Below, piece after piece: positions 46,376 through 62,829 of a DNA stretch of 64,000 bases. A model generated the notes under the pieces. The model worked only from the letters and a program-made list of their open reading frames with translations, did no database searches and was not told where the DNA came from. The first letter of the stretch is position 1; each line of letters starts with the position of its first letter. Both the position numbers and the translations under genes were made by a program. The DNA is from Candidatus Saccharimonadota bacterium (lineage in GTDB: Bacteria; Patescibacteriota; Saccharimonadia; Saccharimonadales; JACDBH01): contig JAQGGW010000008.1 in assembly GCA_028289135.1 (NCBI GenBank), positions 34,385 through 98,384 of the forward strand, written 5' to 3'.

Positions 46376-46376
46376 A

Positions 46377-46946
46377 TTAATCCCCTGCCACATCTGTTAA
46401 AAATGTAACTAAGTCTTTTGGAGCGTTCTTGTAAGTGCTCTTTGAGGTATCAAAAAGGCCGTCTGGATTAGTAAGAACCCACGAAGCCTTCTCGTAGTCG
46501 TACTGTAGTGCGTAGGATAAGCTATTGCCTTCTGTGCCATCGACTATCGCGCCAATCCAACCGCCATCAAACTGCCGGGCGGAACTAATTCCGCTTTCAT
46601 CTTTAAGCCCTAATGTTTTTTGAACGACGGTGCGGGCACTATCCCCCGCCGAAACCGCAATAATTACTTTTCCGCCAAGCAGCGGTTTAATACTTAGGCT
46701 TGTTTTTACTGCCTTAATTCCTGGCCCGCTTACCAATACCGGATAGGTGCCCGTTTTGCCATATGTGAAAGTTCGTACGCCCAAGTCCTTGGTAGTAATA
46801 CGCGTATTATCTATGTAGACATAAGTTGTTGTCGGATCAAAACTGCCTGTTAAAATCACGGTAACGCGAGGCTTAATAAGGCCTTTAACACCCAGAGCAA
46901 GTACTATAAATATGACAATAATAACAATGAGGCGTATGTATTTCAT
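46377..46946 (-). CDS. hypothetical N-terminally membrane-anchored protein
   Basis: 189 aa starting MKYIRLIVIIVIFIVLALGV (anchor), followed by a beta-rich domain. It is packed tightly between two hydrolase genes. Confidence 0.5.
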   Translation of the reverse strand: MKYIRLIVIIVIFIVLALGVKGLIKPRVTVILTGSFDPTTTYVYIDNTRITTKDLGVRTFTYGKTGTYPVLVSGPGIKAVKTSLSIKPLLGGKVIIAVSAGDSARTVVQKTLGLKDESGISSARQFDGGWIGAIVDGTEGNSLSYALQYDYEKASWVLTNPDGLFDTSKSTYKNAPKDLVTFLTDVAGD

Positions 46947-46948
46947 TG

Positions 46949-49900
46949 TCAGATCTTTCCGCTTGTTAGCAGCTGCATAATAGCGTTGGCATGCTGCTTA
47001 ATAACGCCCGCCGATTGGTCATCGCTCAGTTCAATAAGAATCGATGGGCTGCCGGTCTGTTTGTTAAACCAGGCGTCTAATGAACCGTGCTGGCTGACGG
47101 TCTTGGTCTGCCCTTTTGCTGTCATGTCTTGTCCATGCATACCAACGCTCGCAGCATAGGCGTTTCCAATGTCCACGGAAGTGCCTCCAACCGGCGCGAC
47201 GTAGTTCAGGTTGTCATGGTAGATGGCAAATAGGCTTACTTTGCCGATCGATAACAAGAAACTATCAAGCGCCTTAGTTTCAGGTTCGCTGCCAACAGAG
47301 CTACCTTTATAGAACATGCAGCTTATATTACTTTCAGAGCAACTCTCTGGCGTTCCCCCACCCCAGTTGTAGTCTTCATTGCGGTTTAGATCAACGTTAT
47401 TCTTATTTTTTCTAGCTGCGTTATCTATGCCGTAACCATTGATCTCAGGTATAGCTATAACCCGTACATTACTTGGGAGGGTTGGTTCGTTGTAAAGAAG
47501 ATCCCAAGCTATAAGCCCGCCGCCATTCTCGGTTCCATGTATGCCGCCGCCAATAATAATTGTTTTAATGTTGGCGGTGTCCTTGGCTGCGCGGATATAA
47601 ACCTTTATTGGCTGGCCGGCGCTATTGGTGCCAATCGTTCCGCTGTCGGTTACTGACTTGCCTTGGGCATCTTTGCCGAGTTCCGGTGCCTTGCTCCAGT
47701 CCGCATGCGGGCTTCCTTGGGTCAGAACCGTCACTGGTGTCGCTAGGCCGCCAGAAGGCACTAAGAAGCCATTTAGCCCTGTCGCTGTCGGTCCGGTGTC
47801 GGTTGGGCCTGTTGGTGTTGTGGCGGGTGGTGTTGCCGGTGTGTTTACGGAGGCGCCATCATTAAGACCGCCGTCGTTAGTGTAGCCGCTCGTGTAGCCC
47901 AGGCCGCTCATAACGCGTTGATCAAATATCGCACAGTTATATATAGCGCCAGCAATCTCTTCTTGCGAATCGTCCTTGCCGATCTCGTCGTATACTAATT
48001 TCCAAAATTGGGTACTATCTCTTTCGTTTGCATAAGTTAAATTTGGCCGGATTGCATCTATTACGGACTGTGCTTTGCTGGTTTGCGGTGAACCGGCAAC
48101 TACACCAACAGCATCGACAAGATAATTTGAATCTAAAGGGTCGAGTGTCTGGCATGCGGGCGGAATATCATAGGTGTCTATTCCCGCCCATGCAGCTGGG
48201 TTAAAATCTGATGTCGCAGCATACGTATTCCCATTAGCTACAGATGCGAGCGTTTTTGGTATTATGCTCAGCGAACCAAGGAAGTCATTAAGCCCGTTGC
48301 TAATATTGAAGTTCGTCACACTAAATAACATAGTCGAAAATAAGGACGATGTATTGCTTAGAGATGCGTACTTATCAAATAGTGATTCGTTTGTAGCATG
48401 CTCCTTCGTGTAGGCGGCGGCAAGATTATTTGTATACGCAAGGGTTGCCGGAGTTGATATAACACCTCCACTGCCGCGTGTTGACGCTTCTGCCTGCGCC
48501 GCAGACCCAGCAACAAGAAAGTTGGCAGCGCCACTATCTGGCGAGCCATCATACATAGGTCCTGCCCCTAAGAAAGCCATGGCTTTAGTCATTACATACA
48601 CTACGACTTTCCCAATATTTTTCCCAATACCTGTTGCGTTTAGGATTGCTTTAAACGCGTCAGTTATATGTAGGGCGTTAAACACATCTCCCGCTATACT
48701 TGCGGCAAAATCACCAATACTAACAATAAAATTTGATACCGGATTATCTTTTATAGTATTGACAACAGTGGCAATCGGGCAAATAAGCGCGCAAATTGCA
48801 CTGTCCTGATACGTTTTGGTGAAATCCGCGGCGCGGCTTTCGTTTGGATTGCCGCAAAAGTAATGAATCTTATTTGCTTTCTGTTGCTTAAGCGTCATTT
48901 TACAATATGCAACTTTATTAACATTTGTTTCCGCGGTTAATGCGGCCGCAGAAACACTATTGCCAGCAGTTGGATTGCTTAAATTCATCCAACCTTCTGA
49001 TTGTCCTACGTCATTTAGCGTGCCCATAAGATTGCCGAATTCATCGGCGCTTAATTGTCCTGATTTTCCCTGGTCACGTGCCATACTATAGGTTGCGTAT
49101 ATGGCTGCGAGTTGCGCTAAGCGTGCGTTACGTACGATTTTTGCAAGGGTGCCATTTTTAATAGTATTGCTAATTTTAGCAATTCTTTTTAGCCATCTCC
49201 ACACTTTTGAGAATGTAGAGACAGGATTACTTCCAGCAGCGGCATCTTCCTCCACCTCATCTGTCACCACTTTTTCTACTAGCGTGACGCCTTCATTGCT
49301 TGCTTCAGTGGCTGCTTCATCGGTTATCTGGCTTGTTGCGACGCCATCAGCAACTTTTGCTACGTCACCTGCTAGCTCAGCAGTATCGTCGACTGCGGAA
49401 GCGGGAACGGGATTACCTTTTGCGTCAAGAATGGGATTACCATTTGCGTCAACAGCTGGTTGTGGTTCACCGTCATCCTTTATGCCTGCGGGATCATCCT
49501 GGGCTTTATTGGCTGGATCAGGCTCACCCGAAGCGGCTACGCCCCGCTGGTTAGCTGGGGAGTTTTGATCACCGTTAAAATTGCAAGGCCCACTTCCCAA
49601 AAAACAACCAATATATTGCCCAGCTTTATTATCGGGCAGAATTTTATTTAATATTTTTTTTTGAAGCTCCACCTTTTTTGCCGTAATCTTACTTCTTGTT
49701 GTCTCAAAAAGCTTCCATTTCGTAATGCCAGTCTTGTTCTCGATATCTTTTCTAATATGCCGGCGTTTTAGGACATTGTAAAAGTGCGTCTCGTCTTTTA
49801 CTACCTCTTTCACTGCCTTCCGGGCAGATTTACTGTTTTCAAATATATCTTTCGTTACAATGCTATCCGCTTTTTCTCCTAACTTATTTAAATCTTGTAG

Positions 49901-50788
49901 CGCAGCGTTATCTAGCTTTCCACTTTTTAATTTCGCAATCGTATCGGTAGTCAATCCACTCGATTCAGGATCAAGCTTACTGATCTCCTCCCCATTAAAA
50001 GTGAGTTTTACTGGTCTAAGCGTTGTCGTGCCGTCTGCCGCTCTAATGCTCCCAGCACTAAATGCAATGCCGGTATTCTTCTGCAAATCTCTTTCAAAAC
50101 TACCGGTTCTAAGTGTCCTATACCAGTCACGGATTGGGCTATCGGTATCGACCCTATCGCCTTTAAATAGCATAGTGTCAGAAAAAGATCCGTCAGGATT
50201 TTGTATCTCTGTAAGCCGCATTTTTAAATATGCCTTAAAATATGCATCCGACCGGCCAGAAAAGCTGGCATTAAACCTAGAAAAAGTCTTAACATCAATA
50301 TTTTGCAGAATGTGATCTAACTTAAAAACTGCTAAAAAATTACCAAAAGACGCTATAAAGCCAATACTAAGTGTCGTAAGGCCAATACCCGCTCCAATAA
50401 GCAGCTTGTTGCGGCCGGATGATTTCCCCTTTGTCCCAGCGCTGGCCTTGATTTTGCTCTTTGCTTCTTTATAAAATCCTTCGCCTTCAGAATCCTTATC
50501 TCCATCTTCAGAATTCTTGCTACCTCCATTGCCGGCATCCTCTTCTCTAGCTTTTAAAAACCCAGCGCGTACCTGATCTTTTACGTCATCGGTGTCTGCC
50601 TGATCCCTCTCCTGATCACGTTCACGCAGACCTCTGCGTTTTGTTGTCTCTTCGTCTTCGTCGCCGTCCTCATCTGCTTTTCTGTCACGGTCCATGCTTT
50701 TTCGGGAACCATTATACGAATCGCCTGGCTGCTCCCGGAGAGCATTATCTTCTTGGGCTTCAGGACTCTGGTCATCATACACAGCCAT
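46949..50788 (-). CDS. 1279-aa membrane protein with acidic disordered N-terminus and C-terminal M14 zinc-carboxypeptidase domain
   Basis: TM helix LLIGAGIGLTTLSIGFIASFGNFLAVF after a D/E/K-rich ~130 aa. The C-terminal ~230 aa carry M14 motifs IHGTENGG (HxxE), DLNRN, AIYHD and ILIELSDD. The central ~850 aa are unassigned. Confidence 0.65.
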   Translation of the reverse strand: MAVYDDQSPEAQEDNALREQPGDSYNGSRKSMDRDRKADEDGDEDEETTKRRGLRERDQERDQADTDDVKDQVRAGFLKAREEDAGNGGSKNSEDGDKDSEGEGFYKEAKSKIKASAGTKGKSSGRNKLLIGAGIGLTTLSIGFIASFGNFLAVFKLDHILQNIDVKTFSRFNASFSGRSDAYFKAYLKMRLTEIQNPDGSFSDTMLFKGDRVDTDSPIRDWYRTLRTGSFERDLQKNTGIAFSAGSIRAADGTTTLRPVKLTFNGEEISKLDPESSGLTTDTIAKLKSGKLDNAALQDLNKLGEKADSIVTKDIFENSKSARKAVKEVVKDETHFYNVLKRRHIRKDIENKTGITKWKLFETTRSKITAKKVELQKKILNKILPDNKAGQYIGCFLGSGPCNFNGDQNSPANQRGVAASGEPDPANKAQDDPAGIKDDGEPQPAVDANGNPILDAKGNPVPASAVDDTAELAGDVAKVADGVATSQITDEAATEASNEGVTLVEKVVTDEVEEDAAAGSNPVSTFSKVWRWLKRIAKISNTIKNGTLAKIVRNARLAQLAAIYATYSMARDQGKSGQLSADEFGNLMGTLNDVGQSEGWMNLSNPTAGNSVSAAALTAETNVNKVAYCKMTLKQQKANKIHYFCGNPNESRAADFTKTYQDSAICALICPIATVVNTIKDNPVSNFIVSIGDFAASIAGDVFNALHITDAFKAILNATGIGKNIGKVVVYVMTKAMAFLGAGPMYDGSPDSGAANFLVAGSAAQAEASTRGSGGVISTPATLAYTNNLAAAYTKEHATNESLFDKYASLSNTSSLFSTMLFSVTNFNISNGLNDFLGSLSIIPKTLASVANGNTYAATSDFNPAAWAGIDTYDIPPACQTLDPLDSNYLVDAVGVVAGSPQTSKAQSVIDAIRPNLTYANERDSTQFWKLVYDEIGKDDSQEEIAGAIYNCAIFDQRVMSGLGYTSGYTNDGGLNDGASVNTPATPPATTPTGPTDTGPTATGLNGFLVPSGGLATPVTVLTQGSPHADWSKAPELGKDAQGKSVTDSGTIGTNSAGQPIKVYIRAAKDTANIKTIIIGGGIHGTENGGGLIAWDLLYNEPTLPSNVRVIAIPEINGYGIDNAARKNKNNVDLNRNEDYNWGGGTPESCSESNISCMFYKGSSVGSEPETKALDSFLLSIGKVSLFAIYHDNLNYVAPVGGTSVDIGNAYAASVGMHGQDMTAKGQTKTVSQHGSLDAWFNKQTGSPSILIELSDDQSAGVIKQHANAIMQLLTSGKI

Positions 50789-50792
50789 AAAA

Positions 50793-52712
50793 TTACATTC
50801 CTGGGCTTAAGCGGTTACTAAGATCAATCGTCCCCTGTTGGTTAAAGTCACCCTGTTCAATCGCCGCCACCTGCGCCGGATTCGTTGTAATCAAACTAGT
50901 TTCGGTTGCGCTGGCAATAATCTGGATATGCACGTGGTTTTGGCCGGCAAAGAAAAGCCCTTGGCCAACCGGGAACTGGCTCAAACGCTTCTTTTCTTCG
51001 CTTGTGAGCTTAAAGACATCCGCCAAAACATCCACGGCCGAAGGAGACTGCTTGAGGAGCAATTGCATCGATGCGTTAGCAACAATTGCCCGGCCCATGC
51101 GGGAGCCCATAAAGTCTTCAACGTCCTGGCTAATAGTTGTAATACCCAGGTTATATTTGCGGGCGCGCTTGGCCAAAGAAAAGATAAAGTTAGCCGAATC
51201 TTCGTACTTCATAAGCTGCCAGGCTTCATCAACGATCAAAATGCGCTTTTTCTTGTCGCTCTTGGTCTTGTTCCAGATGTAGTTGAGCACAATGTACATA
51301 GCCACAGGGCGTAATTCATCCTCGAGATCGCGGACATTAAATACCACCATTGGGTTGTTAATGTTGATGTTGCTCTGCTGGCTGAATATGCCCGCAAACG
51401 TACCGCTGGTGTATTTGCGCAGGCGCTGAGCCAATTGCGGACCGGTACCGCCCATGTGAAGCAAGGTGTCATAGAGCTCGGTAATAGTTGGCGGCGGAGA
51501 CTGGTGTGTAAGCGGATCGTTAGTAATACCAGCGCGAGCATATGTTTCGATCAAGGCCGCATCCAGGTCCGACTCCTCGACAGGTGTTAGTGCGGGCTGG
51601 ATAATACCCTGGGCTCCGGAGGCCTGCGAAGCCATCTGCGCCTGCGCTCCGCCCATCATAAGCCGCAGTAGGCCATGCAGAGTAATGAGGTTACTGCGAA
51701 GCGCGTTGTCGGCCTCTTCGGCGTCCACGACTTGCGGCAGGTCAAACGGGTTAATCCGCGTATTAGAACTTAAACTTAGGCGTACATAGGCTCCGCCAAC
51801 CGCGTCACACATCCGCTGGTATTCGTTTTCTGGGTCAATAATAAATATCTCGGTCCCAAACATCAACGAACGCAGTGCTTCAAGCTTTACAGCAAAACTC
51901 TTGCCAGCACCAGACTTCGCAAACACCACCGAGTTGCCGTTTTCCAGACTAAACCTGTCAAACAAAACCAGGCCGGAGTTATGCATGTTAATGCCGTACA
52001 AAATGCCTGTGTCCTGGCTAAGATCCGCGGAAGTAAATGGAAATGAAGTCGAAAGCGCGCCGGTGTTCATGTTGCGGCGGATCTGCAGCTGGTCGACAAA
52101 CTGCGGCAATGTGCTGTTTAGCCCCTGTTCTTGCTGGGCGCTGGCGGGTTTGGAATAAATCAACTGCTGGCCAAGCATCGACTCCACCTTGTGGCTGACA
52201 AATTCCAGCTCGTCCTGTGATTCGCCATAAATTGTAAAATACAGCCCAAAACGGAAGAAACGCTCTTCGCCCACCTGCAGCTTGTCGCGCATTTCCTCGG
52301 CGTCGATGATGCTGGCCTGCTTGCCCGGGTCACGCACCCTGCCCTTTTCGTTGTCAATCTGGATCCCGGCTTCTAGCTGAGACACCTTTTTACGAAGGTT
52401 TTCGAGCACCACCTGGCTTTCAACCGGATAAATAAACATACTGAGATCGATCACTTCGTCCAGGTTAACCATACCGCTCAACCAGCCGGTAAAAATCTGC
52501 CGCGGGTAGCCATACACATAAAAAGTCCGGGCGTAGCGGGTGCCAATCCTAAAAAACCCGCTCTGGAATTCAATGGAGCTTGGCGCGATAAAATCACGTA
52601 GCGCGGTAATACCTTTTTGAAAAGCGCTGCTGACCTCTTGCTCTTCTTGCATGCGCTGGGCTTGGGCAAGCGCTACCGGGTCGGTCATATCCTTTTTTTT
52701 GCCAAACGCCAT
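50793..52712 (-). CDS. virB4: VirB4/TrbE-family type IV secretion ATPase
   Basis: 639 aa with Walker A VFAKSGAGKSF, Walker B RILIVDEAWQL, and TTISQDVEDF. The N-terminal domain ...FIAPSSIEFQSGFFRIGTRYARTFYVYGYP is typical of monoderm VirB4. AAGGAG lies upstream. Confidence 0.85.
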   Translation of the reverse strand: MAFGKKKDMTDPVALAQAQRMQEEQEVSSAFQKGITALRDFIAPSSIEFQSGFFRIGTRYARTFYVYGYPRQIFTGWLSGMVNLDEVIDLSMFIYPVESQVVLENLRKKVSQLEAGIQIDNEKGRVRDPGKQASIIDAEEMRDKLQVGEERFFRFGLYFTIYGESQDELEFVSHKVESMLGQQLIYSKPASAQQEQGLNSTLPQFVDQLQIRRNMNTGALSTSFPFTSADLSQDTGILYGINMHNSGLVLFDRFSLENGNSVVFAKSGAGKSFAVKLEALRSLMFGTEIFIIDPENEYQRMCDAVGGAYVRLSLSSNTRINPFDLPQVVDAEEADNALRSNLITLHGLLRLMMGGAQAQMASQASGAQGIIQPALTPVEESDLDAALIETYARAGITNDPLTHQSPPPTITELYDTLLHMGGTGPQLAQRLRKYTSGTFAGIFSQQSNININNPMVVFNVRDLEDELRPVAMYIVLNYIWNKTKSDKKKRILIVDEAWQLMKYEDSANFIFSLAKRARKYNLGITTISQDVEDFMGSRMGRAIVANASMQLLLKQSPSAVDVLADVFKLTSEEKKRLSQFPVGQGLFFAGQNHVHIQIIASATETSLITTNPAQVAAIEQGDFNQQGTIDLSNRLSPGM

Positions 52713-52734
52713 CAGGTTTTACTCCTTAAATTCA

Positions 52735-53751
52735 TCATGCCGGCAGCTCCTTCTCAAGCTCTGGCTGCGGCGCAAAACCAGCGCCCTTGGTAATTACAGG
52801 CGCGCTTAAATCATTAAAGTTCTTCAGCTTTTGGCGGGTAGCAGTGTCGGGGTTATAGGCGTCATAATAAAGTTCAATCAACTCCTGGGTATCTAGCGGC
52901 AGCCCCTGGACGCCGCACTGCAAAAGCCCGCCCAATGTGGCCTGCACGCGGTTACGCAGCTCGGTTTTGGCGGCTTCCAGGTCAGCCTCATTAATGGTAA
53001 CGTGGACTTCTTTTTTAGAAAAAGACCCTAAGAAATTCGTAACAAAGTTCTTGCTGGCTTCAACTGCCTTCTGGCCGTCAATAACAGGGATAAACGGTAC
53101 CACAACATAAAACTTCTTGTCCATAATGCTGGTCTGCGTGGCCAGGTCGCTCATAAACCCGATGTAGTCTTCCATGAGGAGCGCCAAGAGCATGTTGTCG
53201 TGCTCACTTCGGATTTTATCGAGCTTCTCAATATAAGGCCGCAAATCAACCTTCTGTGAACGGGTAAAGATCTGGATCGGGAAATATAGCGAGTTCAAAA
53301 AGCCTTGGTAGCTATACTCAACCGCTTCACGCTCCTGCGGGCTCATGAGGTCAAAGTTAATGCTTTTAACCATAATCACCGAGCGGAAAGAGCCGTCCTG
53401 CATAATCACAATGCCGTCGCGAATTTCGGCAATCTGCAAAGAGTTCTGGGTGCTGTTGGGGTTGGACTTCGGCGCGGCTGGGCCAGATACGCCCTGTGGT
53501 CCGGCTTGTCCCGGCTGGGCAATCTGCGGGCCATAAGCTTGGGCGTTTTGCGGGTTATACCCCTGCACTCCCGCCTGGAAAGATGGCGCAAACTGGGTCG
53601 CGGCGGCACCGCCTAGATTAGCCGGCTGGATAAAAGGTGTTGGTCCAGCAACAGCTTGGTTGGGGTTATAGTCAGGTGGCCGGGCAGGACCAGCAGAGAC
53701 TGGCACCGGTATATTCGGCAATTGGTTCGGTTGTATACTATTTGGATTCAT
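52735..53751 (-). CDS. hypothetical T4SS-associated protein: Pro/Gln/Gly-rich N-terminus + domain resembling a VirB4 N-terminal domain without ATPase
   Basis: 338 aa. The first ~95 aa are low complexity. Then IAEIRDGIVIMQDGSFRSVIMVKSINFDLMSPQEREAVEYSYQGFLNSL...ELIELYYDAYNP parallels the N-terminal half of the adjacent VirB4. There are no Walker motifs. Confidence 0.5.
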   Translation of the reverse strand: MNPNSIQPNQLPNIPVPVSAGPARPPDYNPNQAVAGPTPFIQPANLGGAAATQFAPSFQAGVQGYNPQNAQAYGPQIAQPGQAGPQGVSGPAAPKSNPNSTQNSLQIAEIRDGIVIMQDGSFRSVIMVKSINFDLMSPQEREAVEYSYQGFLNSLYFPIQIFTRSQKVDLRPYIEKLDKIRSEHDNMLLALLMEDYIGFMSDLATQTSIMDKKFYVVVPFIPVIDGQKAVEASKNFVTNFLGSFSKKEVHVTINEADLEAAKTELRNRVQATLGGLLQCGVQGLPLDTQELIELYYDAYNPDTATRQKLKNFNDLSAPVITKGAGFAPQPELEKELPA

Positions 53752-53801
53752 TATTACCGTTTTCCACCCTCAGAAATTCCCTCAAGATAAACCATTAAAC
53801 G

Positions 53802-55004
53802 TTAATGCAGCGATATCACCACTTCGTCATCCGCTTCGCTAATACGCTGGGCTTGGCGGGCGATCGTTGCCACGTTTAAATCGTCATTATTGGCAAGATT
53901 AAGTATAGCAGGATTAGAGGTAGTTCCGCCAGTTGGCTGGCCAGTCTGATAAGCGTTTTGAACAGGTGTAGCTGGCGGGTACGCCACCCGGGGTAAAATG
54001 CTTGTGTCAACTGCTGGCTGGGCTGCTTGAGGCGCCGTGACCGGGCTAGGCGTCGCCGGAGCCGCTGCAGGTGTGGGTTGCTGGTGGCTAAGCGGCTGCA
54101 GGGTCTTAATATGAGAATTAACCCCTTGCTTTTCCTTGGCTTTCTCGGCCTCAATTTTGGCAATCAACGCCTTCTCGTCGGCTGTTGCCTCAACGATGGC
54201 CGTATCGGCTGAGCCCGGAGCCACCACTTTCGTATTCTGAAAGGTCGAAAGGTTTTCTGGAACGTCCGGTGCCGCGCCGTTTTGCCCATTCAAAAACCAA
54301 TAATCAGCCGGCGGCGTTGCTTGTGCTGCCGGCGCTGCCCGCCCCTGTACAATCTGCCGCGCCAACTGTTGCTGCTGCGCCGCAGAAGCCTGCACCATTT
54401 GGTCCAAATGCTGGGCCGTCAGGTTGTTGCTGGCATCCATAATATCATCTTCCGCCTTAACATCCGTAACCGGCTCGCTTATCAAGGTGCTAGGCGCCAC
54501 AAGCCTGTCGGTGCCGTCGCTAGTGTTTAAATATCCTGGCTGGGCAAACAGGTTAACATCCACGTTTTTAATAGCCCACCCGCGGCTATCCAGCGTGCTA
54601 GCTAGTGCCGTCAACCGGCTTTCTACCTCTGTTTGGTCGAGCCCGTTAGTAAAAACTTTTATTAGTTTTTTGGGCACCGTAATAGTCACCAGCTGGCTGA
54701 GCCCATCTTGGTTCCAAACCCGTACATGCGGCTTTATGAGGAAGCGTATCCGCGCCAAAAGCCAAATATCATTCGGCTGGTCGCGGCTAATCGGCGCCGC
54801 CAAAAATCCAAAAACAATCATTGGCAGCAAAAGCACGATAACAAACGGCCAGCGTACCACGCTCAGCGCCGTTGTTGTAGCAAGCTTAAACTCAATAAAC
54901 CCAATCCCTATTGTAATAATGGCAAAAATAAACTGCTTGAGCGTCAACGGCCCAAGAAGCTTGTCTTCTGCCTCAATATCCTGCAAAACCTTATACGTCG
55001 CCAT
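53802..55004 (-). CDS. PrgI-family (VirB3-like) membrane protein with long Ala/Pro/Gln-rich C-terminal extension
   Basis: MATYKVLQDIEAEDKLLGPLTLKQFIFAIITIGIGFI plus a second TM helix matches the PrgI-family N-terminus common in monoderm/CPR T4SS loci. About 250 extra residues are largely low complexity. Confidence 0.6.
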   Translation of the reverse strand: MATYKVLQDIEAEDKLLGPLTLKQFIFAIITIGIGFIEFKLATTTALSVVRWPFVIVLLLPMIVFGFLAAPISRDQPNDIWLLARIRFLIKPHVRVWNQDGLSQLVTITVPKKLIKVFTNGLDQTEVESRLTALASTLDSRGWAIKNVDVNLFAQPGYLNTSDGTDRLVAPSTLISEPVTDVKAEDDIMDASNNLTAQHLDQMVQASAAQQQQLARQIVQGRAAPAAQATPPADYWFLNGQNGAAPDVPENLSTFQNTKVVAPGSADTAIVEATADEKALIAKIEAEKAKEKQGVNSHIKTLQPLSHQQPTPAAAPATPSPVTAPQAAQPAVDTSILPRVAYPPATPVQNAYQTGQPTGGTTSNPAILNLANNDDLNVATIARQAQRISEADDEVVISLH

Positions 55005-55080
55005 GTCTACCTAAGTATACAGGAAACAGGTTATGGCTGGAACTGGTCGAATGCGTAAGTGACTATCAAGAATTTAAGAA

Positions 55081-56610
55081 CTAATATCCAAGTATCGCCT
55101 GGGCGATCGCCGCCCTGTCAGGACTGGTTGGATCTAAATCCGCTACCATATCAACAACTGTCTGCAAAAGCTCAAGGTTTTCACCGCGGTCGATATATTC
55201 TTTAATACTTTTGGCGAGTGTAATACGCTCCAGTACGGGCAGCTGTGCGCTAATCTGAGCTACTGGAGCATATTTATTAACGGCCGCCGCCGCTTCTTGT
55301 ATTGCCGCCACCGGTTGTGCTTCGGTCGGTTGGGCTGGCGTAGGAGCGTGCCGACCTCTACCAATCAGACCCTGACTGTGCAGCGTAGGCCTGATCCGCT
55401 TTAGGAGTAAATGGTTAACTGCGTCATTGCTAAATGCAGCTTCCAATAAACCCGACTCCATATCGTGTAAATTGCCCTGAACCTCAGTATTAACGGATTC
55501 TAAATCCAAGATTGGTTCAGGATTCTGCTGGACTAATATCTGTACCATAATATCTGCAACTTCATTGTCTGAGTACTTATGACGCGTTTCAAGCAACCCC
55601 TCAATCTTTTGCAATAAAGCCGAAGTGCCTCCACCGTTCTGTGTATTGTCGGCCTCATCTTTGCCGATCTTCTTAACATCCGGCGCAGTACCTGAGTTTA
55701 CGATAAATCGTCCAAGCCGTCCTACGCTCTGATTTGCCGGCTTGCTTAGTTCCGTCAGTATCCCTTGCAAGCCCTTGTCTTCCTTGTCGCCCGGTTTTCC
55801 GTAATTAATTTCCTGGACAAACCTAGCAACTGCTTGCTGTTTGATAGCGGTCGTAATCTTGCCGTCAATTACAATACTGTGAGCGTCAAGGAGATCCTTA
55901 ATCTTGGCGTCTAGCCCCTCGGCACCTTCTTGGTAGTGTGTGCGTAAATGTTCAGTTAATACGTCCTTGATTTCAGTAAGTCGCAGGGTTTTTTCGGCTT
56001 CACTTTCTAAGGCAAAATTAGCACTATCAACTTCATCGGCCTTTGCTTCAATAACGCCCGCATTTGCAGCCATAAACTCTTCGCCGGCCTGTGCACTATC
56101 TTTTTTAAACTGCTCAGTCTTTTCGTTCTTCGCCTTGTCTAATACAGAAGTTTTGTAATCCGCCTGTGCTTTTTTAGTTGCATCCCCAAGCTCAACTTCG
56201 TCTATCTCTCCTGTGGCGACGTTTTTGAATAATAAGTCCAGGATGTCACTATACGTTAGCTTTATATTCTTTATTACTTTTTCTTGGTCTTTACTCAGCT
56301 TAACTCCGCGCAGGCTTTTATCGAGCTGCTTGTTGAGCTCAGCAGAGCTTATGACGGGCCTGGCGTCTGTCATAACTTGCCCGGGTGCTGCAACTCTATC
56401 TCCCGCCACTTCAGCGGGAGCGGTCTGGTCTTCCGAAGCTTCTGGAGCTGCAAGCGCTAAAGTCTCGGGGGCTGGAGGCTCAGTAATAAAAGTCGGCGCT
56501 GGCAGAGCCTCGGGGATTATGGGGGGCAGCCCGGAGCCTTCAGCAAGAGGAGCTGGTATGCCGTTTGCGGGTAATTCTGCGTGTGGGTTGGCTTCGTTTG
56601 AATTTGTCAT
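55081..56610 (-). CDS. hypothetical soluble protein (Pro/Ala-rich N-terminus, helical body)
   Basis: 509 aa with no TM helix or signal peptide and no recognisable family. It is the first gene after an internal terminator. Confidence 0.5.
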   Translation of the reverse strand: MTNSNEANPHAELPANGIPAPLAEGSGLPPIIPEALPAPTFITEPPAPETLALAAPEASEDQTAPAEVAGDRVAAPGQVMTDARPVISSAELNKQLDKSLRGVKLSKDQEKVIKNIKLTYSDILDLLFKNVATGEIDEVELGDATKKAQADYKTSVLDKAKNEKTEQFKKDSAQAGEEFMAANAGVIEAKADEVDSANFALESEAEKTLRLTEIKDVLTEHLRTHYQEGAEGLDAKIKDLLDAHSIVIDGKITTAIKQQAVARFVQEINYGKPGDKEDKGLQGILTELSKPANQSVGRLGRFIVNSGTAPDVKKIGKDEADNTQNGGGTSALLQKIEGLLETRHKYSDNEVADIMVQILVQQNPEPILDLESVNTEVQGNLHDMESGLLEAAFSNDAVNHLLLKRIRPTLHSQGLIGRGRHAPTPAQPTEAQPVAAIQEAAAAVNKYAPVAQISAQLPVLERITLAKSIKEYIDRGENLELLQTVVDMVADLDPTSPDRAAIAQAILGY

Positions 56611-56700
56611 AACTAATCACTATATTAGCATAGTTTTGCTAATTAAGCAATAGCATTATGATTCAATCTTACCTTCTTTTATTCTTCTGAACTTAAAAAA

Positions 56701-56725
56701 AGACAGCCCATAGACCAGGCTGTCT
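56701..56725 (-). terminator. intrinsic terminator inside the T4SS-like cluster
   Basis: On the minus strand AGACAGCC-TGGTCTATG-GGCTGTCT (a perfect 8-bp stem) is followed directly by TTTTTTT. It lies 21 nt after the stop of 56747..58333. Confidence 0.7.
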
Positions 56726-56746
56726 TACTGATTTAATACAGAAAGT

Positions 56747-58333
56747 TTAACGCTCCAAAGCACGCTTCATCTTGGCGGCTTTTTCTAGTAAGTTAATCAT
56801 CCATCCATCCGCGACCTTAGTGCCCTTAACGGATGCTACGTATGCTTCGATTTCCGCTGGAGTTTTAGCAAAATAATCATTAAAGTCTTTTAGTACTCCA
56901 GGTTCCGGCGAAGTACCATAGAACTTTTGTTTGGCCTTTTCAAAATCTTCTTTAAGTCGATCTGCCTCGGTATTGATCTTTATTCGGGTCTCTACGCGCT
57001 CCGCACCGCGTTCAACATTTTGCTGGATGCGCACTACAGCTGCAGAAGCAAGCAGCGCCGTCTTAAGTTCATGAGAAATGTTTGCAGTGTTTGCAAGTCT
57101 TTCAAGAGCAATTGCATCACCCATTTCAAAAGGTTTCCCCGCTTCAGTAAATATTCTTTTGTCATGCCTGCTTGGCTTGCCGTTAACGTAGCTGGTAATA
57201 GCCGTTTTAAGGTCGGCGTTCAACGTCTCTAGTTCGATATGGCGTTTTAGCTGGCCAACGGCATTGACGGCAAGCTCCATTTTTTGTGTAACTAACGGAC
57301 GGCCTGTTGCTGCAGCGTGGCGGTCCGCAATGTTAACATCAGGAAGAGTCACCAAGTTATCAAAAATAATGAGGTCTGCTGGAGTTGCATCTGCCTGAAA
57401 ACTATCAAGTGCCTCATTTGCTGTTTTTTGGGCTGCTTCCAACGGCGTTGGCTTGGGGTGTGCCGGATCATGGTCATGCCCGTGCTCGTCGTGCCCATGC
57501 CCATGCCCGCCTTGGTTCCATGTCCATGGCTTGTAAGCTACTTTGTGATGGCCGTGGTTTTGCACAATGGCATGGTACTTAGTACCCTTTTCCATTGCTT
57601 TTTCAAATCTCGCGAGTGCGCTTCGAACAAGTTTTGCATCTTGCGAGTTAGGGCCAGTTGCTAAATACATCCGCAATTTTTCGGGGTGGGTCAGCTGGTT
57701 AAACGAACGAAGTTCGGGGTTTGTAGGATCTGCAGCGACTAGACGGCCAGTGCTGTCATACATTGGCCGTGTTTCGTCCTTTATGCCTAATCCCTCTGGG
57801 TTCACATAGCTCCTTGTAATTAGCCAAAGTATCCGGGCCTCCGACAAGCTGGCATCTCGTACATTAGCCGCATGATCCATATGCTCGGCAGTTTTACGGG
57901 AAGCGTCGGTTGGGTCAGCATGAAAACGTACTACGTTCGGCCTAGTGAACACTGGTCGTCTTACCCTATAGTCGATTATATTTCCTGATTGGCCGTATAT
58001 TGGTTCGGTCGACACTTCGTAAGTTATATTACCCCTTTCATCAGTGCCTGAAGGCCTCATCAATACAGGCTGGCCTTTGGGATCCTTTGCAACAATCTCA
58101 TTAGGACCGTGCGGAGAGTCGCTTGGAACCCTAGCTCCAGACTGTGGAACTCCCTCGGTGTATATCTTTAAGAGGTTCTCTCCAGCCAGCTTGGATCTAT
58201 CACCCTCGGTTGCTGTTGGGTCTTTTTTTATCTCTAACCCATCATAATGAGTGAACCCATCTTGTAGAATGATGTTTGGTAGGAGATTGCCGTCTGCGTC
58301 ACTGATTGAACTGTTTATGTTTTTTTCTGCCAT
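56747..58333 (-). CDS. hypothetical soluble protein with His-rich metal-binding-like tract
   Basis: 528 aa with no TM helix or signal peptide. It contains NHGHHKVAYKPWTWNQGGHGHGHDEHGHDHDPAHP. No family recognised. Confidence 0.5.
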   Translation of the reverse strand: MAEKNINSSISDADGNLLPNIILQDGFTHYDGLEIKKDPTATEGDRSKLAGENLLKIYTEGVPQSGARVPSDSPHGPNEIVAKDPKGQPVLMRPSGTDERGNITYEVSTEPIYGQSGNIIDYRVRRPVFTRPNVVRFHADPTDASRKTAEHMDHAANVRDASLSEARILWLITRSYVNPEGLGIKDETRPMYDSTGRLVAADPTNPELRSFNQLTHPEKLRMYLATGPNSQDAKLVRSALARFEKAMEKGTKYHAIVQNHGHHKVAYKPWTWNQGGHGHGHDEHGHDHDPAHPKPTPLEAAQKTANEALDSFQADATPADLIIFDNLVTLPDVNIADRHAAATGRPLVTQKMELAVNAVGQLKRHIELETLNADLKTAITSYVNGKPSRHDKRIFTEAGKPFEMGDAIALERLANTANISHELKTALLASAAVVRIQQNVERGAERVETRIKINTEADRLKEDFEKAKQKFYGTSPEPGVLKDFNDYFAKTPAEIEAYVASVKGTKVADGWMINLLEKAAKMKRALER

Positions 58334-58385
58334 AACTGAATTGTAGCATATTATTGCTTAAAAAGCAACCCCCTACGTACGCCCG

Positions 58386-61300
58386 TTAAAGAGCTGGGGT
58401 AACAGGTGGCAGATCTCCTGGAGCAGCAGGGCGGCCACCCTGCTCGTAGTCCGTTCCATACTGACGGGAGACTTCCCTGACTTCCTTACTGTTGCGGGCA
58501 AGTTCTGCCATTCGTGCTTTAGTTATTGTAGAGTCCTTAAGCACTCGTCGGCCAGTAGGACGAGTATGAGGTGAACCATCAGGAGTAGGCCCTGGGATGA
58601 CCTCGGTCTCTTCTGTCCATATGCTTGGCCCCAACATTTCTAGCTGAGCAGGGCTTAGTTTAGTAAGGTCTTGTACTTCCCTACCAAACCCTTTAGCCAG
58701 CATTTCTCTTTTCTGGCTGGTTGTTGCGCCTTCAACTCCTTCGTAATATTTAACAAGTGAATCTGCCAAGCTTCGTGAATCGCCGGTTGTAACAGCATCT
58801 TCTACGTCTTTATTGACAAAGTTAACAAACTTTTGGGTGGCTGGGTCTTTGACGTTAGGGCCCATCCACTGCGAACCGTGCGACTGGGCAAAGGATCGCC
58901 TAGCTACGGCCTCGGCTAAGATGCTTGGATCTTCTCTGACGTCTAGCCGGGGAGCATCAGCTGCTAACCTGTTACCCGCAATATCCGAAGCGAACATTTC
59001 TCCAGTTGTTTCGTCATAGCCCATCAAAGTACCGGTTCGCTCGGACTCCGCAATTGCCTCTGCGGAACCATGGCTTAACAGGCCTTCGTCCGGCCGGCCG
59101 GCGTTAGTGGAAACAGAACGGATACGACCGTTCAAATATGCCCTTAGTCCAGCATCCCCATGACCTACTTCGGCTGTAAGGTGTCTTGCTGCTGCCATAG
59201 AGCTGAGCCTGGTCTGCTCTTTGCCATCTTTATCTATATACTTGTAACCATACATAGTTCCGCCGGCGGCAGCTTTGTCAAATGCAGCCAGCTTCATCCC
59301 GGCCATACCGTATTCCTTGACCAGGTTATCGTAATCAATTCCGTTATTTTTTAAGGATTCGCCATTCCGTCCTGTGTCCCCAAGCATTTTTAAGAACTCT
59401 TCACGGTTGGTCGCAATTGACGCTGCGTACATAAAGTTATCATCCCCAAGCACCCTTTGTCCTATCTCGCTTTTATCCTGTAGCATTCTTTGGGATTGTG
59501 AAAGGGCATGACCCATATGGTTAACCCCAAGTTCATTTTTCCATTTTCGTGGATCAGCACCAAGCTTATTAATATTAGATGCCTTGCCTAATGCGCTGTT
59601 AACCCTATTCTTAAAAGCGCTGCTTCCAGGCCTCTTGAAGAACTGGTCGTTTTGCAGGCGATGGAATTTGGCTTGCCGGCCCTTCTTCTGACGGTCGAAC
59701 AAGCCCTTGCTCTTGTCGTTGGCCATGCCGGAGATGGTTGCAAAGGCTCCGCCAGCGAACTTGAAGGCAGCCGGGATGAATACAAGCGGCAATATATATG
59801 CAGCAATCTTAAACAAGAAGCTTGCTATGCCCCCAGCGTTGGTGGTGTCGATAATATAGGCAAAGACGTGTCCTACGGATATAAGAATCATCATAAGCGG
59901 ATATACAAGCAGTAGCCTGCTAAAGCTGTCCCACCAAGCTTTCCAAAGCTTATTATTCATAGGGAATATCCACGGTAATATGGCTAATGGCGACACGAGC
60001 AGCAACGCTACTAGAAAAATTTGCCGCAGCACAATGACACCGTATGTTACCGCTAGGAATAGTAATATGGTGCCCAGGAAGAACCACACGATTAGTATCA
60101 GTGCCGCAATAGCAGGCAGTAATAAGATAACATTGTTAACAAAGGACTCGACTCCGCCGTCGAATACGCAGGATAAAGTAATCTCGGTTGGACAACGGCC
60201 TGTGGAGCTTACGAACGGCTGTTCTATAATGCCCTTCACTCCTCCTCCGACGACGTTTGTTAAGTTAATGACAAACAAGCATAAATACCATGACAGCGCG
60301 ATAAAGATGACGCCAACTACCATGCGTGGCAAAGCCTTTTTAACGGTATATGCATCAAATGGCCCAACGTTGATTGCGGTGCCAATAACCATTACGAGCA
60401 TGATGGGTATCAAAATTAAATAAGCCAGGTCACGCATGCGAACCCAGGTTACTTTTAGCTGGCGCGTGCTTTCCGAGGTGCCACTTGTGCAACCCGTTGT
60501 ATTATCCTTACAATTACTTGCATTGCCGCTCACTATGTCTGAAGCCAGCTGGTTTTGGATCAAGTCGTCAACCGCTTTCAAGCCTTTAGAGATTGAGTCG
60601 ATAACCGGACAAGCTATCCAACCTATAAAGCCGTTAAGTGATTCGCATGAACTTGCCCCGCCGCCTATATCGCCATTCCCTGGTAGCTGATTGGCTGGAT
60701 TATTTGGATCCACATTGCCCCCAGGGTTAGTCGCCGTATCATCATCAAAGGCAAGGATAATAGTACTAGTTCCGTTATCCCTCACCTCTTCAACATATGT
60801 ACAAGAACCTTTTGGTGACGCGTTGTATTTATACAAGATATTCGGAATGGCGGAGGATTCGTATGCGTAAACCACATCATTATTACAGGCATCAGATTTA
60901 TTGCCGAAGACAACAGCCGCGCTCCCTTCCAATACGTCTCCGCCTGTTTTTTGGAGCGTAGTACCCGTAATTTTAGCGAGTTTCCCAATGCCAAAGTGTG
61001 AACCTTTAACCTCGTTAATGCCGCCATCGGCAGTGTAGTAAAAGCTAAAAGCAGCCCGGTGATAACTCGTATCGTTGCCCGCGCTATTTATATACTCTTC
61101 ATTTAGTACATCTTCGTAATTCAGCCCCCAAAGCGGAATACCCGGAATGGCTGGTAGTGCCGCCAAACTTGATAATGCCCCTGAGGATTTCGTATCATCA
61201 GTAAGCCCAGATATGAGCGTAATACACGTACTGCTTGCGCTCGGAAGCGATAAAGCGCTGGTTGGAATCTTAATTTCAAATTTCCTGTCCCTATTCTCGA

Positions 61301-62303
61301 TAATTTTATAGATACTACTTTCTGTGGAGCTATTAATAGCACCCTCTATACTTAGCGAAGAACTACACGATCCTGTCGTATCGGTAAATTGGTTGTCGGT
61401 ATCATCGGTGTAATTATCAAAAAGATGGCGCGTAATATCAAAAGGCACGGTCGAGCCGTTAACGGTAAGGGTGCCTGTTATCTTTAAGTCAATTTGGCTT
61501 CTTGAGTAGAACTTAAAGGTAAAAGCACTGAGGCTCGTAACATTGTCGGCGGCCGGAGGCGTAGGGCTCGGAGCCCCAGGGCTTCCACCGCTGCTGATTA
61601 CGGTGAGCTTTAAGATATCGCGTAATGCTTTGACCTTGTCCCCACCCGATATAGTCTGTGGCTTGGGTGTGATATTACCGTCGCCGGTGGCTGTCGTACC
61701 GCTGTTGTGTCCTGGTTTGGCAATTACCATGTCGGCAATTGCGCCAGCCGCATTAACGGTTACCGATCCGTGATCAGCCCTGCTGCCACGGTCATCGCTT
61801 ATAAACCTCCAATCTGAAGTTCCTTGCCCATTCCTGATATAGTCACCCGGCGGGAACGCCTGTCCGCTCCTGCTGCCGCACCCACCGCCACCTACATTTA
61901 TTTGAACAAGGTTTGTAATGCCTTGCGCTATCAAAACCTTTTTTATATCAGAAACTTTGAGATAATCAGCGCTTGACGCGTCAGCGTGGGCAATATAGAT
62001 ACTCCCGTAAAGGGTATTTGAGGTTGCCACTCTAGTCGCTCCTCCGTTACGAGACCCTCCATTATTAAGGATAGTTGCTAGATCAATTGCGGCGTCAGAG
62101 AGGCCGCTGACAGCTGGGTTGACTATCAATAAGTCGCAGCTGCCTGCAATTATCTTGCCGTTGCTGTCTAGGGTAAGCGGTGTTGCAAAGACTTTTTGGT
62201 AAGAGATAAGCATAACAAAAGATAAGGCTGCGATAGTCCAGAGAATAGAACTTCCCTTCCGCAAGCTTCTTGTTCGTGTCTTAATGCTATTGCGTAATTT
62301 CAT
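58386..62303 (-). CDS. 1305-aa polytopic membrane protein: large extracytoplasmic N-domain + VirB6/TrbL-like multi-TM core + ~430-aa cytoplasmic C-domain
   Basis: N-terminal anchor SILWTIAALSFVMLISY, then ~600 aa Gly/Ser/Thr-rich with scattered Cys. About 7-8 TM helices follow (LAYLILIPIMLVMVIG ... IAAYILPLVFIPAAFKFAGG), in the position and topology expected for VirB6-like channel proteins. The C-terminal domain is unassigned. Confidence 0.6.
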   Translation of the reverse strand: MKLRNSIKTRTRSLRKGSSILWTIAALSFVMLISYQKVFATPLTLDSNGKIIAGSCDLLIVNPAVSGLSDAAIDLATILNNGGSRNGGATRVATSNTLYGSIYIAHADASSADYLKVSDIKKVLIAQGITNLVQINVGGGGCGSRSGQAFPPGDYIRNGQGTSDWRFISDDRGSRADHGSVTVNAAGAIADMVIAKPGHNSGTTATGDGNITPKPQTISGGDKVKALRDILKLTVISSGGSPGAPSPTPPAADNVTSLSAFTFKFYSRSQIDLKITGTLTVNGSTVPFDITRHLFDNYTDDTDNQFTDTTGSCSSSLSIEGAINSSTESSIYKIIENRDRKFEIKIPTSALSLPSASSTCITLISGLTDDTKSSGALSSLAALPAIPGIPLWGLNYEDVLNEEYINSAGNDTSYHRAAFSFYYTADGGINEVKGSHFGIGKLAKITGTTLQKTGGDVLEGSAAVVFGNKSDACNNDVVYAYESSAIPNILYKYNASPKGSCTYVEEVRDNGTSTIILAFDDDTATNPGGNVDPNNPANQLPGNGDIGGGASSCESLNGFIGWIACPVIDSISKGLKAVDDLIQNQLASDIVSGNASNCKDNTTGCTSGTSESTRQLKVTWVRMRDLAYLILIPIMLVMVIGTAINVGPFDAYTVKKALPRMVVGVIFIALSWYLCLFVINLTNVVGGGVKGIIEQPFVSSTGRCPTEITLSCVFDGGVESFVNNVILLLPAIAALILIVWFFLGTILLFLAVTYGVIVLRQIFLVALLLVSPLAILPWIFPMNNKLWKAWWDSFSRLLLVYPLMMILISVGHVFAYIIDTTNAGGIASFLFKIAAYILPLVFIPAAFKFAGGAFATISGMANDKSKGLFDRQKKGRQAKFHRLQNDQFFKRPGSSAFKNRVNSALGKASNINKLGADPRKWKNELGVNHMGHALSQSQRMLQDKSEIGQRVLGDDNFMYAASIATNREEFLKMLGDTGRNGESLKNNGIDYDNLVKEYGMAGMKLAAFDKAAAGGTMYGYKYIDKDGKEQTRLSSMAAARHLTAEVGHGDAGLRAYLNGRIRSVSTNAGRPDEGLLSHGSAEAIAESERTGTLMGYDETTGEMFASDIAGNRLAADAPRLDVREDPSILAEAVARRSFAQSHGSQWMGPNVKDPATQKFVNFVNKDVEDAVTTGDSRSLADSLVKYYEGVEGATTSQKREMLAKGFGREVQDLTKLSPAQLEMLGPSIWTEETEVIPGPTPDGSPHTRPTGRRVLKDSTITKARMAELARNSKEVREVSRQYGTDYEQGGRPAAPGDLPPVTPAL

Positions 62304-62733
62304 AGTAGCTCACTAGTGATTTCTTATTACTCTCTATTACGTAGACGGTCATTACATAGCTTGGATTTACGGCCTTATCCTCTAGGTGGATTATTTGAAC
62401 CCCAAATTTAGTTTCTTGTGATTTGTAGATAAACTTACCCGTTCCTATTAAGGCGTGAAGCCGTGCCGATTCATTTTTAAACGTACTGAGTGGGGTATTT
62501 TTCTGAAAAGAAGTGGTAGTTAGCGCATAGGCCGCATCGGGCTTCTGGTCTTTTATAAAGCTGCCAGTAAACTTTTTGGCTACTTGTTGCTGGGGCGTCC
62601 CGCTACTTTTTACGCTAAAGGCTAGCAGCAAAATGAATAATAAAGCTACAAACGCTCCTATTATAAGCAAAGCTTTGCGAGACAAGCCTCTTCTGGGCGT
62701 TCGAACACCACCATACTGTGCTTCAGGGTTCAT
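62287..62733 (-). CDS. small N-terminally anchored protein (first gene of the cluster; VirB8-like candidate by topology only)
   Basis: 148 aa with the anchor ALLIIGAFVALLFILLLAF plus a ~100-aa helix-then-sheet domain. A 17-nt overlap with the next gene. Confidence 0.5.
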   Translation of the reverse strand: MNPEAQYGGVRTPRRGLSRKALLIIGAFVALLFILLLAFSVKSSGTPQQQVAKKFTGSFIKDQKPDAAYALTTTSFQKNTPLSTFKNESARLHALIGTGKFIYKSQETKFGVQIIHLEDKAVNPSYVMTVYVIESNKKSLVSYYEITQ

Positions 62734-62740
62734 TCCCTAT

Positions 62741-62769
62741 ATTTTAGCAGTCAGATGCACTATAGCCAA
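62741..62769 (-). promoter_or_regulatory. candidate sigma70-type promoter giving a leaderless mRNA for the T4SS-like operon
   Basis: The minus strand reads TTGGCT-17 nt-TAAAAT, then 7 nt (ATAGGGA), then the ATG at 62733. There is no SD. Confidence 0.35.
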
Positions 62770-62799
62770 AATAAAGCTTATGCTACCTTGCATCTAACT

Positions 62800-62829
62800 T
62801 TGACACTTTTTCTATTCATGAAGTAAAAT
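62800..62829 (+). promoter_or_regulatory. candidate promoter for the pilin-like genes (near-leaderless)
   Basis: TTGACA (62800-62805), an 18-nt spacer, TAAAAT (62824-62829), then 9 nt to the ATG at 62839. There is no SD. Confidence 0.4.

Follow-up and report, generated by a model that had tools for sequence, protein, structure and literature searches.

In Patescibacteria, TrsD has been described as the most abundant component of type IV secretion systems (T4SS): it is a remote homologue of the N-terminus of the VirB4 ATPase, its gene usually adjoins virB4, and it is essential in Southlakia epibionticum ML1, while no VirB3-VirB4 fusion was found in this group (Quinonero-Coronel et al. 2025; PMC12102498). 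The T4SS loci of these bacteria are reported to lie near the replication origin and dnaA (PMC12102498), which matches the gene cluster analyzed here. This cluster is contained in a stretch of 64,000 nucleotides (the window) from a Candidatus Saccharimonadota genome (assembly GCA_028289135.1, contig JAQGGW010000008.1, positions 34,385 to 98,384), and we focus on a minus-strand gene at 52735-53751 of the window, which encodes a protein of 338 amino acids (aa) upstream of virB4, and on the low-complexity segments carried by this protein and by its neighbors. The locus is an instance of the TrsD-containing T4SS of Patescibacteria, with which it has protein family, host group and neighborhood (virB4, PrgI, proximity to dnaA) in common.

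A preliminary description of this DNA, made from the letters and their translations, had drawn attention to the 338-aa protein as a split or duplicated VirB4 N-terminal domain and to segments rich in proline, alanine, glutamine and glycine (P/A/Q/G-rich) in three consecutive genes. The analysis reported here shows that VirB4 is encoded at this locus by two genes, one for a 338-aa TrsD-like module of the PF26593 family and one for a 639-aa protein that supplies the remainder of the N-terminal domain together with the ATPase.

VirB4 is encoded by two genes

The 338-aa protein consists of a 105-residue tail followed by a 230-residue domain, and contains the peptide IAEIRDGIVIMQDGSFRSVIMVKSINFDL...ELIELYYDAYNP from which a domain had been recognized in the preliminary description. 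No Walker A or Walker B motif was found in this protein, in agreement with that description, and the neighboring 639-aa VirB4 (50793-52712, minus strand) has both, with the Walker A motif AKSGAGKS at residue 265 and the Walker B motif ILIVDE at residue 491. The identification of the 338-aa protein as a TrsD-like, detached VirB4 N-terminal module is based on NCBIfam, hhalign and Foldseek results. Among the NCBIfam models, where its matches are weak but mutually consistent, it hits the TrsD/TraD family NF041427 (29.0 bits, E 8.5e-7; residues 106-218 aligned with positions 20-142 of the 201-position profile), positions 2-100 of 752 of the CD1110 VirB4 model (E 3.2e-5) and positions 99-233 of 894 of the Mbov_0397 VirB4 model (E 2.6e-4). 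The 639-aa protein scores 351.8 bits against the CD1110 model (NF045971; cutoff 325) and matches the VirB4 C-terminal domain 4AG5 (E 1.9e-46), covers only positions 180-732 of the CD1110 model and 279-600 of the Mbov_0397 model, and lacks approximately the first 180-230 residues of canonical VirB4. Among 40 tail-less members of the TrsD family, all 40 match the VirB4_plasma and TrsD models, 33 match CD1110 and 16 match VirB4_CagE.

The two VirB4 modules also occur in a single chain. An exhaustive HMMER search with the TrsD-like domain recovered 2286 representatives, including an 898-aa protein (P0220) in which residues 13-232 form a TrsD-like domain (38% identity) and residues 312-889 align with residues 19-615 of the window VirB4 at 50% identity over 599 aa. 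Approximately 68 fused clusters of 820-910 aa, labeled mostly as Berkelbacteria or Patescibacteria, carry PF26593 together with PF19044, PF01935 and PF12846. The TrsD-like profile (A2) aligns in hhalign with columns 1-229 of this fused family with a probability of 100% (E 4e-67), and the two VirB4 modules of the fused proteins are separated by a variable Pro/Ala-rich linker of 45-87 aa. Fused and split forms of VirB4 are thus shown to coexist across Patescibacteria.

The 338-aa protein had been thought to parallel the N-terminal domain of the neighboring VirB4, and this likeness was not borne out: the hhalign comparison of the TrsD-like family with the family of short, split VirB4 proteins (A3) gave a probability of 1.5%, and a direct BLASTP comparison of the two window proteins returned only noise. 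Since the two proteins cover full-length VirB4 models in a complementary, non-overlapping manner, fused forms exist, and the profiles show no similarity to the neighbor, we conclude that the 338-aa protein is a detached module and not a duplicate; of the two origins initially offered, the split is retained and the duplication is not.

The AlphaFold2 (AF2) model of the 338-aa protein has an alpha/beta domain of mixed strands and helices at residues 106-297 (52861-53436, minus strand), predicted with moderate confidence (predicted local distance difference test, pLDDT, 57-94 in this block; predicted template modeling score, pTM, 0.48 for the model). In a Foldseek search of the PDB with this model the top 14 matches are all TrwK/VirB4 of R388, with E values from 1.5e-4 to 1.6e-2 over 143-218 columns, and the next match has an E value of 0.4. 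When the TrsD-like protein was compared with PDB sequences by phmmer and by profile search, nothing meaningful was recovered, which we attribute to TrwK being too divergent in sequence. Comparison of the TrsD-like family with the single PrgJ sequence in hhalign was likewise not significant (0.6%), and its only alignment lies in the expected N-terminal register, at PrgJ residues 65-93.

At E <= 0.001 the 338-aa protein has 6588 homologues, and counts of tails and lengths given below as "close homologues" were taken from 120 close ones among the matches listed. A protein identical to it (P0001) is a hypothetical protein of a Candidatus Saccharibacteria metagenome-assembled genome; PF26593.2 is precomputed on P0001 and on 120/120 homologues among the matches listed, a Pfam copy without this model gave no family for the 338-aa protein, and a literature search for PF26593 found no publication. 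The length of the TrsD-like domain is constant in the 120 homologues (224-233 aa). The order PrgI-like, TrsD-like, VirB4 recurs in 57 related loci, with the TrsD-like gene in 57/57, VirB4 downstream of it in 51 and the PrgI-like gene upstream of it in 53, the latter two being expected only where the related contigs extend far enough. In the window a separate GAGGGTGGA lies upstream of the TrsD-like start codon, a gap of 22 nt separates the gene from virB4, and AAGGAG precedes virB4.

Two further observations were made on these proteins. Residues 117-217 of the TrsD-like protein match PHROG 2666, a phage family annotated "terminase large subunit", with an E value of 1.8e-5 at the N-terminal positions 3-89 of its 555-position profile. 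The likeliest reason is that the family has a VirB4/HerA-like N-terminus, and it may include VirB4/HerA-like ATPases with a related N-terminal module. Residues 347-395 of the 639-aa VirB4 (51528-51674, minus strand) form a short A/Q/G-rich insertion, MMGGAQAQMASQASGAQGIIQPALTPVEES, of which 19 residues are missing from the fused relative P0220 according to BLASTP.

Low-complexity segments of the TrsD-like and PrgI-like proteins

We defined a low-complexity segment as a stretch of 40 aa or more in which P, A, Q and G together make up at least 50%. By this measure the P/A/Q/G-rich segments reported earlier are present in all three proteins: at residues 1-118 of the 338-aa protein, at residues 187-259 and 288-367 of the 400-aa PrgI-like protein encoded upstream of it, and at residues 6-86 and 403-466 (the second P/A-rich) of the 509-aa protein encoded next. 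No tandem repeats were found in the tails, which are compositional. Such segments are carried by 7/11 open reading frames (ORFs) of the T4SS locus (44285-63525) and by 0/43 ORFs in 1-43616 (Fisher p = 1.9e-6); the enrichment at the T4SS locus is therefore not a background property of the window. Their designation as long tails needs qualification: the segments are real, the 338-aa protein has its tail at the N-terminus, and what had been taken for a tail of the PrgI-like protein is a linker that precedes a conserved C-terminal motif.

The N-terminal tail of the TrsD-like protein (residues 1-105; 53437-53751, minus strand) was delimited from the AF2 model, where pLDDT is below 50 at residues 23-105, and from homologues. 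It is present in 120/120 close homologues, with a length of 23-137 aa (median 75), and in 46/46 genome loci, with a length of 38-139 aa. The tail is nearly uncharged (median D+E 1.8%, K+R 1.6%) and has P (23%), Q (13%), A (12%) and G (10%) as its main residues. The tail opens with the conserved motif M-[DN]-P-N, position 3 being P in 103/116 sequences, and stops at an invariant NPNSTQNxLQ (NPNSTQNSLQ in the window), which is the start of the domain. Because synonymous sites are saturated (pS about 0.8), divergence from the closest loci was expressed as nonsynonymous and synonymous differences per site (pN and pS) and not as dN/dS. In the tail pN is 0.16-0.20, compared with 0.05-0.06 in the domain. 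These figures indicate that the tail is translated and constrained, yet evolves 3-4 times faster than the domain.

The place of the tail differs across the wider TrsD family. It is N-terminal above approximately 45% identity, and C-terminal (40-194 aa) in many farther relatives; a few members have tails at both ends and many have none. In farther relatives with a split VirB4, the C-terminal tails sit at the junction that is the linker in fused VirB4 proteins. Tails at both ends in some proteins, and a tail at the C-terminus only in the farther relatives, were noted among representatives including P0133, P0143-P0145, P0159 and P0164.

The 400-aa protein (53802-55004, minus strand) is a PrgI/VirB3-like membrane protein with a long extension that is predicted to be cytoplasmic. 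It matches Pfam PF12666 (PrgI) with residues 5-96 (38.7 bits, cutoff 27), and its AF2 model contains a hairpin of two transmembrane helices, residues 22-43 and 48-69, with pLDDT 89-97. Past the hairpin coil prevails, interrupted by isolated helices at 124-143, 195-219, 275-294 and 365-388, and pLDDT is about 50 in the linker; as a whole the model is mostly coil and gave no Foldseek match in the PDB. The best 120 homologues are all 349-412 aa long. In an alignment of 51 sequences the N-terminal 200 residues, comprising the PrgI hairpin and a further conserved region, are conserved, followed by a variable P/A/Q/T/S-rich linker (residues 201-360; 53925-54404, minus strand; delimited from the alignment and AF2) of 76-226 aa, median 136. 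In the linker, alignment columns agree with the window residue at an identity of 0.04-0.30, compared with 0.35-0.85 in the flanking blocks. The linker is conventionally charged (D+E 12%, K+R 7%) and is retained in 50/50 orthologous loci. It is followed by a conserved C-terminal motif of about 40 aa, NPAILxLAxNDDLNVATIARQA...DGEVVISLH (53805-53924, minus strand), which is 39-46 aa long in 51/51 sequences, without gaps, with a column identity of about 0.6 and a pN of 0.03-0.10.

The tails are thus present in orthologues (46/46 TrsD and 50/50 PrgI loci). Conservation in length rather than sequence, which the preliminary description proposed to look for, was not seen: both vary among orthologous loci. 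A matched-spacer geometry of the TrsD tail and the PrgI linker was considered and rejected, because their lengths are uncorrelated.

In terms of topology, no transmembrane segment was found in the 338-aa and 509-aa proteins, and no signal-peptide-like N-terminus was seen in either by reading the sequences, no predictor having been run. The extension of the PrgI-like protein follows the second transmembrane helix on the K/R-rich side of the hairpin, with five K/R residues after this helix (residues 70-100) compared with one in the 4-residue loop, and by the positive-inside rule it is predicted to be cytoplasmic; judging from the sequence, both termini and the extension should be cytoplasmic. 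Natural VirB3-VirB4 fusions place the C-terminus of VirB3 beside the cytoplasmic VirB4 (PMC4027160).

The third gene of the series behaves differently. The 509-aa protein (55081-56610, minus strand), with a P/A/E-rich N-terminus (the N-terminal tail of about 90 aa described earlier maps to 56341-56610), has no match in Pfam, NCBIfam or PHROG, and no orthologue of it or of the 528-aa protein encoded next (56747-58333, minus strand; no family match, no transmembrane segment) was detected in the 57 related Saccharibacteria loci. In 38 loci with both a VirB6-like and a PrgI-like gene, these two abut in 17, are separated by one or two unrelated ORFs in 18 and by a gap without any ORF of at least 100 aa in 3; the intervening ORFs are 131-665 aa long, and a P/A/Q/G-rich stretch occurs in only 3 of those 18 loci. 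As far as these sequence comparisons indicate, the 509-aa gene is strain-specific and not a conserved T4SS component, and the series of three consecutive tailed genes reduces to two that are conserved. The slot between the VirB6-like and PrgI-like genes (55081-58333 in the window) is hypervariable in related Saccharibacteria (L001-L057), and may be a place where lineage-specific effectors or accessory proteins are encoded. A histidine-rich stretch, HGHHKVAYKPWTWNQGGHGHGHDEHGHDHDPAHPKP, spans residues 260-295 of the 528-aa protein (57449-57556, minus strand) and is possibly a metal-binding segment; it is also possible that the protein is a cargo.

Proposed assembly of the split VirB4 and possible role of the tails

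In R388 the N-terminal domain of VirB4 holds VirB3. The explanation that accounts best for the observations as a whole, and that we consider on balance probable, is that a split VirB4 N-terminal module assembles in trans and that the low-complexity segments are tethers with conserved motifs at their ends. The TrsD-like module would assemble in trans with VirB4 and would dock the ATPase on the cytoplasmic face of the PrgI/VirB3 hairpin, as in R388. The low-complexity segments, predicted to lie at the VirB3|VirB4-N|VirB4-C junctions on the cytoplasmic side, would act as flexible tethers, the likely binding parts being the M-[DN]-P-N motif at the N-terminus of TrsD and the 40-aa helix-plus-EVVISLH motif at the C-terminus of PrgI, and both the sequence and the length of the spacer would be free to drift.

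Several points weigh against this explanation. Assembly in trans and the tether role are inferred from sequences, and the topology of the tails is predicted only. The Foldseek matches do not locate the aligned part of TrwK, and the query TM-score (TMq) is a modest 0.31 over the whole 338 aa, with a pTM of 0.48. Many family members outside the clade of the window protein are tail-less, which indicates that the tail is not required for TrsD function generally, and the lengths of the TrsD tail and the PrgI linker are uncorrelated (rho 0.09, p 0.57). The evolution of the two forms may have proceeded either by ancestral fusion and a later split or by secondary fusion in Berkelbacteria.

The main rival holds that the tails are functionally neutral, being linker remnants or by-products that drift in length and are tolerated on cytoplasmic termini. 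Their very low sequence identity, their 3-6-fold variation in length and the lack of correlation between TrsD-tail and PrgI-linker lengths are consistent with neutrality, as are the common occurrence of tail-less TrsD-like proteins in other lineages and the shift of the tail from one terminus to the other among family members. However, the tails are kept in 46/46 and 50/50 loci of genomes known for strong reduction, the tail pN of 0.16-0.20 is far under a saturated pS of about 0.8, which indicates that amino-acid change is constrained, the composition of the TrsD tail is tightly held (charge below 2% for each sign, P about 23%), and the conserved motifs at the distal ends make sense only if those ends matter; neutrality is therefore somewhat unlikely, while deserving serious consideration. 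We regard as distinctly doubtful a proposal in which the PrgI 40-mer, the TrsD M-[DN]-P-N motif and the uncharged P/Q spacer form a cytoplasmic "fishing-line" platform at the base of the T4SS that recruits substrates or partners and takes on part of the role of the missing coupling protein, the split of VirB4 freeing the N-terminus for the tether.

Multivalent self-association of the tails, forming a condensate or scaffold at the cytoplasmic base of the T4SS that would, for example, concentrate substrates where no coupling protein is encoded nearby, would fit the prion-like character of the TrsD tail, which is uncharged, P/Q/N/G-rich and has about 4% spaced aromatic residues, and the occurrence of P/A/Q/G-rich segments in 7/11 locus proteins. 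We find it improbable, since 23% proline and few aromatics are commoner in extended spacers than in domains that form condensates, the charge of the PrgI linker is conventional and several of the other P/A-rich segments are ordinary linkers of exported proteins. The wall-spanning spacers suggested in the preliminary description draw on the fact that P/A-rich segments are classic wall linkers in monoderm surface proteins and are carried by exported proteins of this very locus (the pilin encoded at 62839-63525 and the 1279-aa protein with the peptidase domain). This extracytoplasmic placement has very little probability in the light of the topology described above, in which neither the 338-aa nor the 509-aa protein has a transmembrane segment or an N-terminus that reads (again without a predictor) as signal-peptide-like, the PrgI-like extension comes after the second helix of a two-transmembrane hairpin, whose loop has 4 residues, and on its K/R-rich side, VirB3-VirB4 fusions put the VirB3 C-terminus beside cytoplasmic VirB4 (PMC4027160), and the TrsD domain belongs to a cytoplasmic ATPase. 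As for the 338-aa protein itself, its position next to virB4 and its resemblance to VirB4 N-terminal sequences would also be expected of a duplicated, paralogous N-domain copy or of a pseudogene fragment produced by a frameshift or an assembly error. Such an origin is hardly credible, given that the neighbor starts at profile position 180 and shows no profile similarity to it, that a two-gene layout with its own start and Shine-Dalgarno-like sequence recurs (57 loci with the TrsD-like gene, 51 with a separate VirB4), and that there are 6588 homologues at the threshold given above. Recurrence in related loci and the hhalign probability of 1.5% refute duplication, pseudogenization and assembly artefact alike.

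Genomic setting and comparison with known systems

The TrsD-like gene lies in a minus-strand, operon-like cluster (46949-62303) within the T4SS locus (44285-63525). Upstream of the variable slot is the gene of a 1305-aa polytopic membrane protein (58386-62303, minus strand) with eight transmembrane-like segments and a weak match to the CD3337/EF1877 mobilome membrane protein family of NCBIfam (E 0.024), which we list as VirB6-like and which is conserved upstream of PrgI in related loci; a T4SS pilin, identified by NCBIfam/Pfam, is encoded at 62839-63525, divergent to the cluster. Downstream of virB4, a 1279-aa membrane-anchored protein (46949-50788, minus strand) carries a C-terminal M14 peptidase domain (Pfam Peptidase_M14, E 8.9e-10), an MpaA-like match, an acidic disordered N-terminus and one transmembrane segment (128-146), and is followed by a 702-aa protein with a GDSL-lipase domain (44285-46393). 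The M14 protein is likely a cell-wall hydrolase partner of the T4SS, and the two proteins, both with P/A-rich linkers, are likely its envelope-remodeling partners.

The genes dnaA, dnaN and recF (Pfam Bac_DnaA, DNA_pol3_beta and SMC_N) are located at 39741-43616, the T4SS-side block starting with its first gene approximately 0.7 kb away, and YidC (60KD_IMP) is encoded at 37665-38636. Because of the position of dnaA, dnaN and recF, the T4SS cluster can be said to adjoin the replication origin, and the locus is a chromosomal, origin-proximal T4SS typical of Saccharibacteria. The G+C content of the window, 35-46% in the first 36 kb, steps up to 44-51% beyond that point, and positions 1-36000 hold a long plus-strand block of ORFs that resemble glycosyltransferase and polysaccharide-synthesis genes, as judged from their N-terminal sequences; this low-GC part may have been acquired separately, as an island.

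Few machines have been shown to be essential for Saccharibacteria to live as epibionts, and the T4SS is among them. Wang et al. reportedly found in 2023 that TrsD is essential in Southlakia epibionticum ML1. As TrsD is the missing front end of a truncated VirB4, there is a three-part unit to model, consisting of a VirB3-like protein, VirB4-N and VirB4-C, and the two conserved short motifs on flexible tethers are candidate interaction sites in a group of which one member, Southlakia, is genetically tractable. The finding refines the annotation of a described system and reveals no new one: the split-module or TrsD component and the gene set are already published for Patescibacteria, and the new descriptive detail, namely always-present variable tails with conserved terminal motifs, and fused forms, is modest. 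The words "disordered", "low complexity", "proline", "split", "shorter" and "truncated" were not found in the main text of PMC12102498, and the only fusions it treats are those of VirB3 and VirB4; on this ground, that main text does not describe how TrsD complements a truncated VirB4, nor the fused forms or the tails.

The order VirB3-like (PrgI)-TrsD-VirB4 corresponds to trsC-trsD-trsE of staphylococcal plasmids of the pGO1/pSK41 type (TrsD of CONJScan MPF_FATA). The Staphylococcus aureus plasmid SAP069A has the same order as the window, with a 135-aa VirB3-like ORF, trsD (227 aa) and a 672-aa DUF87/VirB4 protein. In hhalign the window family A2 aligns with the SAP069A TrsD over 174 columns (profile 12-205, TrsD residues 33-217 of 227) with a probability of 86.6% and an E value of 4.5e-6. 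The two share a Walker-less domain of about 200-230 aa and remote homology to the VirB4 N-terminus, whereas the staphylococcal TrsD has no low-complexity tail and the window protein has one of 105 aa. The 338-aa protein misses the NF041427 cutoff of 200 bits, the best E value among 40 members of its family being 8.5e-13; since it scores 29 bits against this cutoff, it is placed outside the NF041427 subfamily and is, by profile score, a distant relative and not a member.

In full-length VirB4 ATPases the equivalent of the two window polypeptides is a single chain. PrgJ/CD1110, Mbov_0397 and TrwK of R388 are all of this kind, and the window VirB4 aligns with the 796-aa PrgJ of the Enterococcus faecalis plasmid pTEF2 only from about residue 220, so that PrgJ has about 220 extra N-terminal residues; in the window VirB4 is two polypeptides, and the N-terminal module carries a 105-aa disordered tail. 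The PrgI of pTEF2 is 117 aa long compared with 400 aa in the window, with a common PrgI domain, a two-transmembrane hairpin and a place upstream of VirB4. Over PrgI of pCF10/pTEF2 and VirB3/TrwM, the window protein adds a conserved cytoplasmic region at 100-200, the variable linker and the C-terminal motif. The tails are thus unusual, as had been remarked, when set against pGO1-type TrsD (227 aa) and pCF10-type PrgI (117 aa), but they are the rule within Saccharimonadia. The VirB3-VirB4 fusions of mating-pair formation type T (MPF_T) join their modules at the very junction where both window tails are found, whereas in the window the modules are separated further.

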